From the IMG/VR virus record IMGVR_UViG_3300045201_000011, positions 1-39,323 of that record: 39,323 nucleotides of DNA; one strand, 5' to 3'. The notes beneath the pieces were generated by a model, which was given only the letters and a program-made list of their open reading frames with translations, ran no database searches and was not told where the DNA came from. Below, piece by piece: positions 3,021 through 38,786 of this stretch. The first letter of the stretch is position 1, and the number at the start of each line of letters is the position of its first letter. This DNA is from a virus. The translations under genes were made by a program, and so were the position numbers.

Positions 3021-3299
3021 ATGAACCGAATCGAAGATGAGCTATGCTTCCGGGTAGACCAGTGGACGGATGATGGAAGCAGGATTGATTCCGTTCTATC
3101 GCTCTCAATGAATGCGCTGATTGCACAGGGGGCATTTTATGAGGCCGTTAAACTCCGTCCTCACAAGCGCTTGACCATGCGGCATAAGTCGCGAGTGATT
3201 AATGAGCATGTTCCTGAACGACTACGCTTAATAGACATTGAGAAACGCGCCGAGCTGGAGCGGATGATTGCGGAAGCAAAGAACGCCCGCAAGAAATAG
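3021..3299 (+). CDS. Hypothetical protein; the only plus-strand protein gene in the genome
   Basis: ORF track gives 2976..3299. Start trimmed to ATG 3021 (MNRIEDELCF...) with AAGGA 8 nt upstream. 92 aa. Confidence 0.55.
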   Translation: MNRIEDELCFRVDQWTDDGSRIDSVLSLSMNALIAQGAFYEAVKLRPHKRLTMRHKSRVINEHVPERLRLIDIEKRAELERMIAEAKNARKK

Positions 3300-3300
3300 C

Positions 3301-3358
3301 TGCTCATCAGGCCAAAGGCGCAACCCCATGGCGACCGGAGAAAGCCCCCGGTTTCGCA
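3301..3358 (-). ncRNA. Hammerhead ribozyme motif, type II, copy HH2
   Basis: Minus strand reads UGC GAA ACCGG-GGGCUUUCU-CCGGU C GCCAUGGG-GUUGCG-CCUUUGGC CUGAUGA GCA. Predicted cleavage is after C at 3333. Confidence 0.75.
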
Positions 3359-3380
3359 TTGTTCTGCATATGTGGATTAG

Positions 3381-4239: not shown

Positions 4240-4301
4240 TTGCTCATCAGGTTCTAGCCGCGACACTAGAACGACCAGAGGGAAGCCCCCCGGTTTCGCA
4301 A
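4240..4301 (-). ncRNA. Hammerhead ribozyme motif, type II, copy HH3
   Basis: Minus strand reads UUGC GAA ACCGGGGGG-CUU-CCCUCUGGU C GUUCUAG-UGUCGCGG-CUAGAAC CUGAUGA GCAA. Predicted cleavage is after C at 4273. Confidence 0.75.
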
Positions 4302-4322
4302 TGGTATGCATTGGTGGATTGA

Positions 4323-4502
4323 TTAAGCCGTTTGAAGCTTGCCGGTCAGTGCCAGCGAGTGAAAGAGATTATGAGCGCCGTTGATATTGGCCTCAGTGGG
4401 TGACCGTTCTGCCTTATCACATGCAGCATTGTAGGCATCGGCTTGTTGTTTGGTGAAAACATAACCAGTGAATGCCCTGTAACCTTCCGCGATGCGTTCC
4501 AT
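4323..4502 (-). CDS. Hypothetical 59-aa protein (below the ORF-track cutoff)
   Basis: Hand translation: MERIAEGYRAFTGYVFTKQQADAYNAACDKAERSPTEANINGAHNLFHSLALTGKLQTA. Its ATG overlaps the upstream stop (TAATG), which suggests translational coupling. Confidence 0.5.
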   Translation of the reverse strand: MERIAEGYRAFTGYVFTKQQADAYNAACDKAERSPTEANINGAHNLFHSLALTGKLQTA

Positions 4503-4753
4503 TAAATCAGACCTTCCAGTTCGTTTAGAATTTCGTTTATTGAGGGTGCATCCTGTGGTTTCGCTTTGCGGACAATTAAGCCAGCCTTACGCAACTGAGC
4601 GAGAACGCTAGGAACTTGAGGCGATAAGAACGCCACTAGACCATTTGCATCAGCTTTCGCCATGGTACGCCATGCCTCTTCCCCGGCTTCCGTTTCGGGA
4701 TAGAACCGCGTCCACAATCCATCATGACAGGCGTATGTTAGATCGGCTTGCAT
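4502..4753 (-). CDS. Hypothetical protein (83 aa)
   Basis: ORF track gives 4502..4756 (GTG). ATG at 4753. Coupled to the upstream small ORF (TGAGTGATG) and to the downstream ORF. Confidence 0.55.
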   Translation of the reverse strand: MQADLTYACHDGLWTRFYPETEAGEEAWRTMAKADANGLVAFLSPQVPSVLAQLRKAGLIVRKAKPQDAPSINEILNELEGLI

Positions 4754-4756
4754 CAC

Positions 4757-4846
4757 TCAGCCTTCCATTACGATTATTGAGATGAGCATAATCAGGCAGA
4801 TGAAACCGCCCATTGAGGCGAAAGCTAATGCTTCATTGAATGTCAT
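4757..4846 (-). CDS. Small hydrophobic peptide (29 aa)
   Basis: Hand translation: MTFNEALAFASMGGFICLIMLISIIVMEG. AAGGGA RBS 7 nt upstream. The stop abuts the next start. Confidence 0.4.
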   Translation of the reverse strand: MTFNEALAFASMGGFICLIMLISIIVMEG

Positions 4847-4860
4847 TTTGTTTCCCTTGG

Positions 4861-4910
4861 TTAGCGTTTAGGATGCTCCACAGTTCCCCGTGAAGGCACC
4901 TAAGGGCTAA
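4861..4910 (-). repeat. Structured 50-nt repeat, copy A (hairpin with GGAA tetraloop on the minus strand)
   Basis: 46/50 identical to 5105-5154. Minus strand reads CUUCACGG-GGAA-CUGUGGAG, flanked by UUAGG...CCUAA. Confidence 0.7.
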
Positions 4911-5087
4911 TCAGTAACCGGCCCACGTTCTCAGCGATGCAAAGTCCCCATCCCATGTGCCTGTAGTTTCACAGTGTTTTCCGTCTGCATTTGTGTAAGC
5001 ATCCTTGACTGTGATTGTGCCGTCCGCGTTATCGCTAATGAACCAATCATGTTGAGCGGCCCATGCGATTTGCTTCGTGTTCAACAT
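4911..5087 (-). CDS. Hypothetical 58-aa protein (below the ORF-track cutoff)
   Basis: Hand translation: MLNTKQIAWAAQHDWFISDNADGTITVKDAYTNADGKHCETTGTWDGDFASLRTWAGY. GAGGA RBS 7 nt upstream. Confidence 0.55.
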   Translation of the reverse strand: MLNTKQIAWAAQHDWFISDNADGTITVKDAYTNADGKHCETTGTWDGDFASLRTWAGY

Positions 5088-5104
5088 TCCGTTTTCCTCA
5101 TCAG

Positions 5105-5154
5105 TTAGCGTTTAGGATGCTTCACGGTTTCCCATGAAGGCACCTAAGGGCTAA
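5105..5154 (-). repeat. Structured 50-nt repeat, copy B (hairpin with GAAA tetraloop on the minus strand)
   Basis: Minus strand reads CUUCAUGG-GAAA-CCGUGAAG, flanked by UUAGG...CCUAA. Sits directly upstream of the RBS of ORF 4911..5087. Confidence 0.7.
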
Positions 5155-5945
5155 GCCCTAACCTGCATTGATATGCAGTAGTGGATAGAATGTAGTCCTA
5201 TTCAATTGTCAAAGAACTCAGAGGCTTAGCCCCTGCCCTTCCCGGCGTTTGCCGTTCGGTGATTTGGTTTATATCCACTAGTGCATAGATACGCAATAGC
5301 GAAAATGAAAAAATAGACACGCTATCCATCTTTTTTGGATAAGTGCCTGAATTTATTGAAAAGGAAATGCCACAAGCCCGCCACATGGGAACATGAAGAC
5401 GGCTAATGTTAGCGCCTTGAGGTGGCTTGAGGGCGACCAGTGGCGGCATGAGGTGGCGAAAAGGGCAGACGTGGAGACACTGAGACACGCACAGAAAGCC
5501 ACAAGCCTGCCCGCCTGCATTGCATCGGAAGCACTAGCGGAAGCCTTGAGCCTGCCCCCCGGTGATGCTCAGTCTCTTTGAAGTCCAGCAAATGCAGGGC
5601 TTACGGGAAACGTGTGGCGGATTTAGTGGCAAACGTGTGTGCCCGCGAGCCTTTACCGCGCACAGTGAGCGCCTGCTCGTGCCTTTCACCGCGCCCCCAC
5701 GGGGGGTACGCGCGCTGCCCCTCTATCGATTGCCGCCTCGGATTTTTTCGGGGAAATAGCCGCTACCCTTAGGGCATCACAAAGCATCCCTCAGGTTGAC
5801 TCAGGGAAGCTCGTGGGAAGCGGAGAAGCTCTAGGGTGAAGGAATGTAATAGGTGAACCTCAAGGCTCTCTGTGAGTCTCTGAGGCTGATTGTAGGTATT
5901 GACTTTCCCTACGAAGGCGTAAGCCTGAGAAGGGAAAGGGCGATC
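5155..5945. other. Long non-coding, short-repeat-dense region (candidate genome-end / concatemer-junction and early control region)
   Basis: No convincing ORF. Short direct repeats: GCCACAAGCC(C/T)GCC x2, GAGGTGGC x2, AACGTGTG x2, CCTTT(A/C)ACCGCGC x2, GGGAAGC x2. GC hairpin CCCCCACGGGGG. Confidence 0.5.
5184..5212 (-). promoter_or_regulatory. Candidate host-type early promoter (TTGACA-N17-TCTATC), overlapping a GTGGATA-box
   Basis: Minus strand has a perfect TTGACA (5212-5207), a 17-nt spacer and TCTATC (5189-5184). It faces the early small ORFs and ardA. Confidence 0.4.
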
Positions 5946-6386: not shown

Positions 6387-6404
6387 CTATGGTGAGGGGT
6401 AATT
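6387..6404 (-). promoter_or_regulatory. Phage RNAP promoter P1 (AATTACCCCTCACCATAG)
   Basis: 18/18 to the in-window consensus. Lies between the large-terminase stop and the Rap1a-like gene. Confidence 0.85.
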
Positions 6405-10547: not shown

Positions 10548-10584
10548 TAAAGAAAAGCCCCTGTCACCAGTGATGACAAGGGCT
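10548..10584 (-). terminator. Terminator-like hairpin upstream of the tail fiber gene
   Basis: Minus strand reads AGCCCUUGUCA-UCACUGG-UGACAGGGGCU followed by UUUUCUUUAU. Confidence 0.45.
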
Positions 10585-10606
10585 GGGATATTGTGAGTGC
10601 TGAAAA

Positions 10607-17774: not shown

Positions 17775-20143
17775 CACGTTCTCCTCGAACGGATGATGAA
17801 AGTCGCTTCCCATTCGGCGGACAAGAGTGCGCAAGGTAACGGGCTGTCATTGATAATCTCGATTTCGGTTTCTTCGGATTTACCGGAGATTGGGAACCGG
17901 AAACGACCAGACTCAAGCGAAGGCTCGCCAATGATGTTTCTGCCGCCACCTGTTACACGCCCTGAGAATACACTCGTGTAGACTTCCCTTCGGAAGGGCG
18001 TAACCTCAGCACGGAAATAACCGCTGTCGTTGTAGGTCAACGTCATGCGACGAAGCTGCATTCGACCGGCACCGACCGCCATTTGCCCCCCGCCAACAGC
18101 CTCCTCTTTAATAACTAGCTTTGAGAGACGGTATCGGAATGTGTACTTCTGCCCAGCGATGAAGTCTGTGACACGGCCCGCAATGATGAATGTATTGCTG
18201 CTATCCCATTTAAGCGGAATGAGCTGGCCCATACGATAAGGACCGTTATCTACACCAATGATCTGGAACTGTGCGGGACGAGTGACCTTGTAAGGCAGCT
18301 TGATCTGAGTTTGATCATTCGTTGCATCATAAACAACGGAACACTGAGAGGCATTCACACGCTGATCGAGATGAAAGGCAAAGTTGATACCGGGGTCAGT
18401 ACGGCCTGCCTCAAGACTGATCACTTCGAATAGAACTTGTCCATGGCGTTCAACCAGCATCCATAAGTCGCTTTCAATGAAATCCACATAAAGAACGGTT
18501 GTGTCCTCATCGAATATCCATTTCGACCAACTTGATTGAAGCTTCTCAAGCTCCTGCCAATAGTATTTGTAAACGTATAGTGCGTTCTTCTCTTTTGGCG
18601 AAAGCGCTACTAGAACGTCTTCATTCGAACTTGCGGCAAGCTTAGTCACACTTCCGGGGATATACTTGGGAACATGTGCGGTAACATCGGCGGCGTCATT
18701 CGTCTTCGTTTGTCCGTCAACATAATATTCCCGGATGCCGGAGTAAGCACCCTTGTTCATAGCAAAGTAGATATTTCGGCCAGCGCCTACAGGCTTCGCT
18801 AGGAGTGATGCCTGAAACTCAGTCGTTTGATTGATTGAGATTGTGTAAGGTGTCAGCGTATCGGCTGCCCCAAGCATGAACTGCGTCTGATCTGAGAATA
18901 GCAGAAGCGTTTCATTGAACGGTATAGCATGGCGTATGATGGAAACTTTAGTGTGACTGACGGCAACGTCGATCATGTCCGTATCGAGCGTTTGGGTCGC
19001 TGAGCTTCTCCAGAACGTAAAGAACTCACCTGCACGGGAGAATATCACATTCTCATCTGCAACCAGTCCTAAGCGGTTTCTGTGGAAGAAAATGTCATTA
19101 ATCTGTTTACCAATGAACGAAGGCTCAGGTACGCTTTCCGTGTCACCGACCTTGCGCTCATCCCATGGAATTTGCTCGAATGAAAACGTCCCGTCCGAGA
19201 GGCGTTTCAGCGCGTGAGGCATTGTTGCGCCATTGATACGGTATAGCTCACCGCCTTTGCACGATTCTTTCCAGATGCCAGTTGAGCTTCCGCCCGTAGG
19301 GTTGGAGAACTCTACCCAGTAGTTATCGAATGCTGATGACTGGTCACCGCCTATTTCGATCTGGAAGCCATGGAATGCCCTAGCCGGTAACTCAGAGAAG
19401 CGCTGAGCTGTATCCTTACAAACCTTGATTGCCTGATCACCGAGACCATCAGCGCTCGACACTGCGAAGTCTGCCCCATCCCATCTAGTGACGCGGATAG
19501 TCGAACCAAGTTGATTCAACGTGAACTGCGAAGTGAATGTCTGGTCAGCATTGAATAGGTTAACGAGCTTGCCCATAATGGCATCCGTAGCAATCTGCTC
19601 GGTGTGCGATTTATCTGAGCCATCCGGGGTCTTGAATGTCTTCTGAATGCCGCCAATGTTGACTGTGTAGTTTTGAGCATAAGCGCCTTGTCGTATCCAG
19701 ACTAACGCTTCCTTTGGTCTGCTAGGCGTAAGCTCATTCGTCATTCCAGCAGTGCGCGTGCTGTTTAGTATGAACGTATAATCGGCAATCGTTACAGCGG
19801 TGAAATCCTTGTCTGCTGCGGAGGTAGCGAGATAATTCTTACCGTTAGGAAACGACACGGGAACTTCGGTGCCGTTCATTCGAAAAACCCTAAGGTTTCC
19901 GTTGGTTATCACCACCGCATATCGTTCAACAGAATCTCGGTTGATCATGTGGACGAATGCAGTCCCGAAGCTGGTATCACTGATCTTTGCGACAAACCGA
20001 GATGGAGGCCGTTTCTTTAAGCCCTCGACAACAGAGCTATGGCCGTTCTCTTGAAGTTCACACTGAGAAGCCAGACGAAGCGAAGACGGCTGCTGCGATA
20101 CGCCATTGACGAGGTTCGGAATTGTTGAGCTAATCAGGGTCAT
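17774..20143 (-). CDS. Tail tubular protein B (T7 gp12-like)
   Basis: 789 aa. N-terminus MTLISSTIPNLVNGVSQQPSSLRL...EGLKKRPPS parallels T7 gp12 MALISQSIKNLKGGISQQP...EGLQKRPP. Confidence 0.9.
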   Translation of the reverse strand: MTLISSTIPNLVNGVSQQPSSLRLASQCELQENGHSSVVEGLKKRPPSRFVAKISDTSFGTAFVHMINRDSVERYAVVITNGNLRVFRMNGTEVPVSFPNGKNYLATSAADKDFTAVTIADYTFILNSTRTAGMTNELTPSRPKEALVWIRQGAYAQNYTVNIGGIQKTFKTPDGSDKSHTEQIATDAIMGKLVNLFNADQTFTSQFTLNQLGSTIRVTRWDGADFAVSSADGLGDQAIKVCKDTAQRFSELPARAFHGFQIEIGGDQSSAFDNYWVEFSNPTGGSSTGIWKESCKGGELYRINGATMPHALKRLSDGTFSFEQIPWDERKVGDTESVPEPSFIGKQINDIFFHRNRLGLVADENVIFSRAGEFFTFWRSSATQTLDTDMIDVAVSHTKVSIIRHAIPFNETLLLFSDQTQFMLGAADTLTPYTISINQTTEFQASLLAKPVGAGRNIYFAMNKGAYSGIREYYVDGQTKTNDAADVTAHVPKYIPGSVTKLAASSNEDVLVALSPKEKNALYVYKYYWQELEKLQSSWSKWIFDEDTTVLYVDFIESDLWMLVERHGQVLFEVISLEAGRTDPGINFAFHLDQRVNASQCSVVYDATNDQTQIKLPYKVTRPAQFQIIGVDNGPYRMGQLIPLKWDSSNTFIIAGRVTDFIAGQKYTFRYRLSKLVIKEEAVGGGQMAVGAGRMQLRRMTLTYNDSGYFRAEVTPFRREVYTSVFSGRVTGGGRNIIGEPSLESGRFRFPISGKSEETEIEIINDSPLPCALLSAEWEATFIIRSRRT

Positions 20144-25248: not shown

Positions 25249-25266
25249 CTATGGTGAGGGGTAATT
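25249..25266 (-). promoter_or_regulatory. Phage RNAP promoter P2 (AATTACCCCTCACCATAG)
   Basis: 18/18 to consensus. Heads the structural (late) gene block. Confidence 0.85.
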
Positions 25267-29426: not shown

Positions 29427-29496
29427 GGTGCTGTCCTCTCTCAGGAGTGACGCCTCACAGGAATGCACCTGTGAAGCTATATGCATTAGTGGATGA

Positions 29497-29949
29497 TTAC
29501 AGGCGGAAAGCGTTCATCAGTTCCGCATGAGTTGCAGGGCGAGCGCTGGAGCCATATTGAAAGGCAAGGAGTTGGTCCTTGAGCTTCTTTTTCTCAGCAC
29601 GTAGAACCACAATTTCAGAGCGCATAAAGAACGTCGCAGTCTGAACTTCTTCCAAAGAGAAGCGTTTGTCAGTTCGGACCTCAGCCTTTGCAGCCTTCAA
29701 CGACTTCCTGAGTTCCCTCGTCTTCGCACGGGTCTTGCGCCCCTGCTGTTTCAGAAACTCGACATTGTATTTTTCAAGATTGACCTCGGCTTCCAGATTG
29801 GAAACTAGCTCACGGAGCTTCCGAATAGTCGCAGCCTGAGAAGCAGTTCCTTCGACCAACATCTTGTTTTCGCGTTCGAGCTTTGCATGTTCAGATGCAA
29901 CCTCAGTAAGAGCGTTCATCGCTGGCAGAAGCTTTTCATATGCGTTCAT
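29497..29949 (-). CDS. Coiled-coil hypothetical protein, flanked on both sides by GTGGATA-box motifs
   Basis: 150 aa with heptad-rich Lys/Glu/Leu composition. Confidence 0.55.
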   Translation of the reverse strand: MNAYEKLLPAMNALTEVASEHAKLERENKMLVEGTASQAATIRKLRELVSNLEAEVNLEKYNVEFLKQQGRKTRAKTRELRKSLKAAKAEVRTDKRFSLEEVQTATFFMRSEIVVLRAEKKKLKDQLLAFQYGSSARPATHAELMNAFRL

Positions 29950-29979
29950 GAGTTTGTTTCCATATGTGGATAGATTAAA

Positions 29980-32494: not shown

Positions 32495-32512
32495 CTATGG
32501 TGAGGGGTAATT
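32495..32512 (-). promoter_or_regulatory. Phage RNAP promoter P3
   Basis: 18/18 to consensus. Overlaps the stop codon of ORF 32511..32834. Confidence 0.85.
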
Positions 32513-34665: not shown

Positions 34666-34683
34666 CTATGGTGAGGGGTAATT
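34666..34683 (-). promoter_or_regulatory. Phage RNAP promoter P4
   Basis: 18/18 to consensus. Overlaps the stop codon of ORF 34682..35128. Confidence 0.85.
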
Positions 34684-36039: not shown

Positions 36040-36057
36040 CTATGGTGAGGGGTAATT
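36040..36057 (-). promoter_or_regulatory. Phage RNAP promoter P5
   Basis: 18/18 to consensus, just downstream of the RNAP gene (the phi-1.1 position in T7). Confidence 0.85.
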
Positions 36058-36089
36058 CACCAGCGCAATTAAATGCACTGGTGGATAGA

Positions 36090-38728: not shown

Positions 38729-38746
38729 CTATGGAGAGGGGTAATC
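38729..38746 (-). promoter_or_regulatory. Phage RNAP promoter-like site P6 (16/18), 60 nt upstream of the RNAP start codon
   Basis: Minus strand reads GATTACCCCTCTCCATAG, with two mismatches to consensus. Confidence 0.55.
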
Positions 38747-38768: not shown

Positions 38769-38786
38769 CTATGGTGAGGGGTAATT
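38769..38786 (-). promoter_or_regulatory. Phage RNAP promoter P7, upstream of the RNAP gene
   Basis: 18/18 to consensus. Starts 2 nt after the stop of ORF 38789..39142. Confidence 0.8.

Follow-up and report, generated by a model that had tools for sequence, protein, structure and literature searches.

Two lineage-specific hairpins in the early operon of a temperate T7-like phage, candidate RNase III-type sites alongside hammerhead ribozymes

The phage genome and its early operon

The window analysed here, 39,323 nt long, is the whole of a complete IMG/VR virus record (IMGVR_UViG_3300045201_000011) that originates from ant metagenomes and carries terminal direct repeats, which point to a circularly permuted assembly. 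Its genes, nearly all of which lie on the minus strand, encode a single-subunit RNA polymerase, a family A DNA polymerase, and a T7-type portal and terminase, together with a tyrosine integrase, a MarR-type regulator and ArdA; the genome is that of a complete temperate T7-like phage. The closest terminases were those of prophages of a ‘Rhizobiales bacterium’ (85%), Devosia, Rhizobium and Agrobacterium.

The phage's own promoter, the T3/K11-like AATTACCCCTCACCATAG, is present in seven copies in minus-strand sense (6387–6404, 25249–25266, 32495–32512, 34666–34683, 36040–36057, 38729–38746 and 38769–38786), one of which sits after the terminase, driving a 111-aa ORF. The region 3′ of the terminase consists of a phage promoter, a small ORF and approximately 800 nt of non-coding sequence with T7-style CCTnAGG short repeats. 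Arrays of such repeats at 5930–5780 and 5560–5400 on the minus strand (CCTTGAGG, CCCTGAG, CCTGAGGG, CCCTAAGGG; GCCACCTCAnG) recall the left end of T7, with its terminal and short repeats, and it is probably at these arrays that the virion ends are located.

The early operon extends from approximately position 5200 down to the integrase. Read along the minus strand, it opens with a leader motif common to sister phages (TTCTTTGACAATTGAATAGG, 5216–5197), followed by a GTGGATA box (5189–5172), a small hairpin and then the first of the two elements studied here, hairpin A (5154–5105). Next come a Shine–Dalgarno sequence (GAGGA, 5099–5095) and the ATG (5087) of a 58-aa orphan ORF (4911–5087), which ends in TGA (4913–4911) and is directly adjoined by the first base of hairpin B (4910–4861). 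Beyond hairpin B lie a second Shine–Dalgarno sequence (AAGGGA, 4858–4853) and the ATG (4846) of a 29-aa hydrophobic ORF (4757–4846), whose stop overlaps the start of an 84-aa ORF (4502–4756); a 59-aa ORF, a type II hammerhead, ardA and two more hammerheads follow. Hairpin A would thus stand in the 5′ leader of the operon, and hairpin B occupies its first intercistronic gap. An earlier reading made from the sequence alone (the sequence-only reading) had placed each element just before a small ORF, and this layout bears it out: hairpin A ends 17 nt and hairpin B 14 nt before the respective ATG, and both ORFs have a Shine–Dalgarno sequence.

The GTGGATA box (minus-strand TCTATCCACTACTGCATA), which lies between the leader motif and hairpin A and has an inverted partner at 5272–5289, is probably an operator. 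Near-palindromic 18-nt boxes of this type (TATCCAC-N3-TGCATA) were seen at 12–29, 4305–4322, 5172–5189, 5272–5289, 29480–29497, 29957–29974 and 36072–36089, so placed that an inverted pair brackets the early control region, and relatives carry ATCCAC-N3-GTGAAT at matching positions.

The three type II hammerheads, all recovered by an Rfam scan on the minus strand of the same operon (4301–4234, 3294–3359 and 2869–2935), are located downstream of the hairpins. Such ribozymes are general in the early operons of this phage group, and their presence indicates that the early transcript is processed; type II hammerhead cleavage has been demonstrated in an Agrobacterium prophage (PMC3088659). A conserved module was also observed 3′ of the first of them (4192–4065 on the minus strand; L057:10969–11053, L059:12207–12287 and L065:10686–10793 in related phages), in which a 27-aa ORF (MFTWSITLRWKRKKATV...) overlaps a hairpin of the form AAAAGGCCACrGU...ACyGUGACCCUUUU and is followed by a strong GC hairpin.

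Sequence, fold and divergence of the two hairpins

The two hairpins belong to a 63-nt direct repeat (4860–4922 versus 5104–5166, 87% identity), and comparison of its cores, 4861–4910 and 5105–5154, gave the 46 identities over 50 positions that the sequence-only reading had counted. A degenerate 40-mer of the hairpin core occurs twice in the 39.3-kb genome, both times on the minus strand, where shuffled sequences would yield no occurrence, and a covariance model built from both copies (R1), run with filters off, detected no third copy in the window. The hairpins are thus confined to the transcribed (minus) strand of the early operon.

On this strand, hairpin A (5105–5154) reads UUAGC-CC-UUAGG-UGC-CUUCAUGG-GAAA-CCGUGAAG-CAU-CCUAA-AC-GCUAA, and hairpin B (4861–4910) carries GGAA as its loop; the consensus of both is UUAGC-CC-UUAGG-UGC-CUUCAYGG-GNAA-CYGUGRAG-CAU-CCUAA-AC-GCUAA. 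The fold first proposed comprised two helices separated by a 3 × 3 internal loop. The minus-strand hairpin and its GNRA loop stand, but an outer helix (UUAGC/GCUAA) had been missed, which lies beyond a 2 × 2 loop (CC/AC) and makes the element one of 5 + 5 + 8 bp. The 3 × 3 loop itself (UGC/CAU) is only one of two ways to draw the centre of the structure, as RNAfold instead pairs U13–A37, G14–C36 and C15–G35 and bulges C16 and U38, giving approximately 20 bp. Either way, the interruptions (2 × 2 and 3 × 3 loops, or the opposed bulges C16/U38) are the same in copies A and B, and all 18 proposed pairs are standard in each copy (36 of 36 pair cells).

Minus-strand folding energies were moderately better than those of shuffled sequences (RNAfold, z of −1.9 and −3.3) and those of the plus strand were similar (z of −2.75 and −2.5), and since the plus strand folds about as well, energy alone does not permit a choice of strand. 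A crude census of hairpins in the genome (at least 16 pairs, at most six mismatches) returned approximately 200 matches over both strands and had no discriminating power. A third long hairpin, at 2537–2479, lies inside a conserved small ORF and is not conserved in relatives. The repeat and the fold of hairpins A and B are real.

The four differences between the copies all fall within the apical 20 nt (p = 0.02, simulation), in agreement with the initial claim that they are confined to the inner helix and the loop, and the basal 30 nt, i.e. two helices plus loops, are identical. Three of the differences alter apical-helix pairs on one side (U-A/U-G, C-G/U-G and G-C/G-U), and pairing is kept on the minus strand only, as had been noted from the sequence: on the plus strand, the corresponding positions yield one non-standard pair for copy A and two for copy B. 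The fourth exchanges GGAA for GAAA and leaves both loops GNRA, again as read initially. The probability that four random changes would all be tolerated ranges from 0.03 to 0.19 with the share of transitions assumed in simulation, for a comparison of two copies only, and the pairing argument from substitutions is a weak one.

The 12-nt 5′ flank of hairpin A (5155–5166, minus strand) matches the hairpin B flank (4911–4922; GCnGGUUAnnGn) at eight of 12 positions, and the latter is overlapped by the final four codons of the 58-aa ORF. Divergence is thereby 33% in the flank versus 8% in the hairpin, which suggests selection on the hairpin, or else that the hairpin simply is the repeat unit. The distribution of changes within the element suggests a base under sequence constraint and an apex under pairing constraint, a combination that fits a helix read by a protein.

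Searches for relatives and the leader slot of sister phages

No homologue of the hairpin region (4300–5700) was found by blastn among 50,697 phage records. IUPAC patterns of the hairpin gave no homologue either, with three patterns in viral contigs and one in metagenome contigs, and a pattern search of 185,579 species genomes yielded no match. The covariance model R1 detected no homologue in 80 terminase-anchored viral loci, in 69 further loci (55 of them prophage loci from named genomes), in five whole host genomes or in seven contexts of 84-aa ORF homologues; its best non-self matches (L018, L157, L087 and L081, E-values of 0.03–0.8) proved to be CCTTAGG repeats from genome ends or else unrelated hairpins. 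For the 58-aa ORF there is no homologue, the ORFs adjacent to the hairpins are orphans among relatives, and the relatives with an 85% identical terminase are devoid of both flanking ORFs and of the hairpins. All contigs encoding the 58-aa or the 84-aa ORF come from this one phage; over 700 nt their identity is 100%, and they offer no usable population variation. The hairpin pair represents real, lineage-specific structured RNA elements.

Comparison with Rfam families (hammerhead, twister, pistol, hatchet, nut/put-like and others) gave no match in 4800–5200, at the gathering threshold or at E-values up to 10. Several known identities were examined and rejected. The hairpins are absent from the terminator scan and end without a U-tract (3′ tails CUGAUGAGG and CCAAGGGAA), which argues against intrinsic terminators. 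A promoter for the phage RNA polymerase was set aside, as the 18-nt motif AATTACCCCTCACCATAG that precedes class II and class III genes differs from the hairpin and shows no likeness to it. For a λ-type nut or HK022 put site, there was no Rfam match and no boxA-like partner was seen; against a CRISPR-repeat mimic or mini-array stand the 194-nt ‘spacer’, which is itself a gene, and the lack of such a repeat among the 185,579 species genomes; for a tandem antitoxin RNA, copies A and B are not in tandem.

The leader motif that precedes hairpin A is found in sister phages as a 17–20-nt sequence (L057:10298, L065:10015, L118:5619 and L199:10246). In all four, a minimal hammerhead lies directly after the motif and is followed by the first Shine–Dalgarno sequence; its layout is a stem I hairpin, CUGAUGAG, a stem II hairpin and GAAAC, and in Rfam it attains a sub-threshold type III score only. 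A similar leader hammerhead is present in L143. Stem III of this minimal ribozyme would be only approximately 3 bp long (GGU/ACC), and, if transcription starts at GG, self-cleavage would remove a 4-nt triphosphate end. In the phage studied here, the Rfam scan found no hammerhead after the leader motif; hairpin A is there instead, before the first ribosome-binding site.

Other structured RNAs are found in the early regions of this group. The leader of L064 carries an unrelated 21-bp irregular hairpin. In L065, an unrelated 22-bp irregular hairpin (10551–10600; 5 + 7 + 8 bp with 1 × 1 mismatches), situated between two GC hairpins, lies in a 96-nt stretch that folds at −57 kcal/mol; it takes the place held in the present phage by the type II hammerhead at 4301–4234, and no hammerhead core is detectable within it. 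Furthermore, L047 (3972–4060) and L061 (4740–4786) share, after a variant of the leader motif, a different, conserved structured stretch (AGGnnACCGUGnGnACGnnAAAACGGArCC) that may be another leader RNA device.

Contigs assembled from RNA libraries also cover the locus, at low depth and with possible DNA contamination, and bear on no reading of the hairpins. One of them (X16, 4814–5131) spans hairpin B and another (X18, 4888–5196) spans hairpin A. A single contig of a third library (X19, 4310–4856) runs into Illumina adapter at 4856, a position 5 nt beyond the 3′ edge of hairpin B with 10 nt left to the AUG; this may mark a genuine 5′ end of RNA or have arisen by chance. One X16 contig ends exactly at G4272, where the 3′ product of the 4301–4234 hammerhead is predicted to begin (cleavage at 4272/4273), and beyond this base a further 29 nt map to 18592–18620; such a chimera is expected if the reverse transcriptase ran off a real 5′ end, in what is a single low-depth contig.

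RNase III-type processing and its alternatives

Hairpins A and B are probably cis-acting RNA hairpins on the early mRNA, all readings of that kind taken together. More specifically, and tentatively, their likeness to known sites suggests RNase III-type processing or stabilising sites. Each hairpin is predicted to form a quasi-continuous helix of approximately two turns, in which 18–20 pairs span 23 stacked positions, capped by a GNRA loop and interrupted by small internal loops or bulges. Host RNase III would bind this helix and cut at or beside the internal loops; the cut would release the leader from the message and split off the first cistron, leave the upstream RNA with an exonuclease-resistant 3′ hairpin and expose the next ribosome-binding site. 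We infer the cleavage, the enzyme and the effect on stability or translation.

In T7, cleavage at R0.3 and R0.5 detaches the leader and the first cistron, leaves a 3′ hairpin and exposes the next ribosome-binding site. The position is the same here, in that the early polycistronic transcript of a T7-like phage has a hairpin in its leader and another behind its first cistron, and so is the general architecture of irregular hairpins of about two turns, with internal loops, shortly 5′ of ribosome-binding sites. On coordinates reported by Dunn and Studier (1983), the T7 sites lie 27–35 nt before their AUGs, and a hypothetical cut in the 3′ side of the inner loop would fall approximately 27–30 nt before the AUG. 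When folded, the T7 early sites R0.3, R0.5, R1, R1.1 and R1.3 likewise gave irregular hairpins that form a repeated family, placed in the leader and in the gaps between early cistrons. However, their consensus (ACUCAAGGUC...GGCCUUUAUGAUU) is unlike hairpins A and B, although function does not require homology. The T7 sites also have an upper stem of approximately 10 bp and a larger asymmetric loop, as opposed to three short helices with 2 × 2 and 3 × 3 (or bulged) interruptions; they number ten genome-wide as opposed to two copies; and the operon described here contains hammerhead ribozymes in addition. The resemblance to T7 RNase III sites put forward by the sequence-only reading therefore holds for genome type, position, helix length, internal loops and the presence of the enzyme in prophage hosts, but not for the T7 R-site sequence.

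As regards the enzyme, RNase III (rnc) is encoded in all five genomes carrying related prophages. Published reactivity epitopes of the enzyme include a helix length of approximately two turns and internal loops or bulges, which confine the cut to one strand so that a protective 3′ hairpin is left (PMC1540722). With coaxial stacking allowed, a helix of about 20 bp is what both copies are predicted to form (18 pairs over 23 positions, or 20 pairs with RNAfold), and the predicted structure of each has internal loops or bulges. The inhibitory base-pair rules for the proximal and distal boxes are those of the Escherichia coli enzyme (PMC1540722); RNase III of Sinorhizobium meliloti has been assayed on the T7 R1.1 substrate (PMC6121014). 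As this operon already uses ribozymes, an RNase III site is unnecessary to explain its processing.

The positional and structural evidence for RNase III sites applies equally to a structural mRNA element that stays uncleaved, which we hold to be possible but rather doubtful. Such an element would shield the leader and the first cistron's 3′ end from RNase E or exonucleases, or would be an operator through which an RNA-binding protein, conceivably RNase III in a purely binding role, tunes translation of the downstream ORF. Indeed, a loop–helix–loop (bulge–helix–bulge) arrangement is documented to permit RNase III binding while cleavage is blocked (PMC1540722), and the identical basal 30 nt fit a sequence-specific reader. 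Since hairpin B adjoins the stop codon directly, terminating ribosomes would melt its base, and coupling would be allowed. In the fold of the 116-nt leader, moreover, hairpin A clamps a pairing between GGAAUG at the start codon and an upstream CAUUCU; this pairing is nevertheless seen for copy A only, in a single minimum free energy prediction, and no candidate RNA-binding protein was found, the neighbouring ORFs being orphans.

It is unlikely, though compatible with a simultaneous RNA function, that the repeats act at the DNA level, either as recombination joints around the 58-aa ORF cassette or as a long palindromic protein-binding site. The genome is at its most variable here, where one orphan ORF lies between the direct repeats; relatives whose terminase is 85% identical lack both the ORFs and the hairpins; and the arm words CCTTAGG and CCTAAAC resemble the CCTnAGG short repeats of T7-type genome ends. 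The PeSL cassettes of T4-type phages, repeated stem-loop elements that likewise flank small orphan early genes in the most plastic region, provide a precedent for repeated regulatory cassettes driving modular shuffling (PMC2839356). A PeSL, however, combines a strong σ70 promoter with an effective terminator (PMC2839356, PMC4122927) and occurs in dozens of copies in another phage family; here there are two copies only, without a credible promoter, a U-tract or any promoter or terminator call at the hairpins, and a PeSL identity was rejected. As for a binding site, the three-part palindrome, at 50 bp, far exceeds the length of a dimer site, and only the mRNA strand tolerates the stem differences. 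Neither a deletion nor a mini-circle joint was found in four runs, and every contig with the flanking genes is identical.

The rhizobial promoter consensus is CTTGAC-N17-CTATAT. The sequence-only reading had also entertained a weak promoter (CTTCAC-N18-CTAAAC), and a host-type promoter in each repeat (CTTCAY-N18-CTAAAC), arranged in tandem like T7 A1–A3 with the palindrome incidental or an operator, appears quite improbable. The hexamers match the rhizobial consensus at nine of 12 positions in copy B and at eight of 12 in copy A, and the predicted start, at approximately 4859–4856, lies just 5′ of the Shine–Dalgarno sequence; a σ70 scan, on the other hand, lists nothing at the hairpins. The −10 hexamer is missing its last T and the spacer measures 18 nt; three of the four differences between copies fall in this ‘spacer’ and yet preserve RNA pairing, the fourth weakening the −35, and the palindrome with its 18-pair symmetry would be left unexplained. 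A much better −35 (TTGACA, 5212–5207) is located upstream, within the motif conserved across relatives, although it may not be one, as the position of a downstream −10 is not conserved.

Finally, a new functional RNA (a small self-cleaving motif in place of the leader hammerhead of the sisters, or a decoy RNA) would suit the position of the relatives' ribozyme in a ribozyme-rich operon and the lack of any Rfam match even at E-values up to 10, but is very improbable for a plain hairpin with tiny internal loops, without the junction or pseudoknot of known small ribozymes, conserved unpaired nucleotides beyond 10 loop bases, relatives, or a match to CRISPR repeats or repeated host elements in the pattern search of 185,579 species genomes.

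On its own, the RNase III-type hairpin would be another lineage-specific intercistronic hairpin of a type long known from T7, with no relatives supporting a family. The main interest lies in the apparent exchange with the leader hammerhead of sister phages. Hairpin A shares its operon, its phage group and the leader slot after the TTTGACAATTGAATAGG motif with the hammerheads of Rhizobiales prophages (Perreault et al. 2011, PMC3088659), and either device would divide the early message into units; unlike them, it has no hammerhead core and is predicted to depend on a host enzyme and to yield a 5′-phosphate instead of a 5′-OH end. It is conceivable, as a speculation to which we attach low probability, that a host-enzyme-dependent hairpin replaced the self-cleaving leader hammerhead of the sister phages, ribozymes and RNase III sites being interchangeable modules that trim early phage mRNA at its 5′ end, or, less likely still, that the hairpin itself is a minimal RNA of a new type, self-cleaving or a protein decoy. 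Should the hairpins be RNase III sites, two processing systems would act on one early transcript, with host RNase III at the leader and first cistron and three hammerheads beyond them, and the phage would offer a natural system in which to ask why phages trim the 5′ ends of early messages and what advantages ribozymes have over host nucleases.
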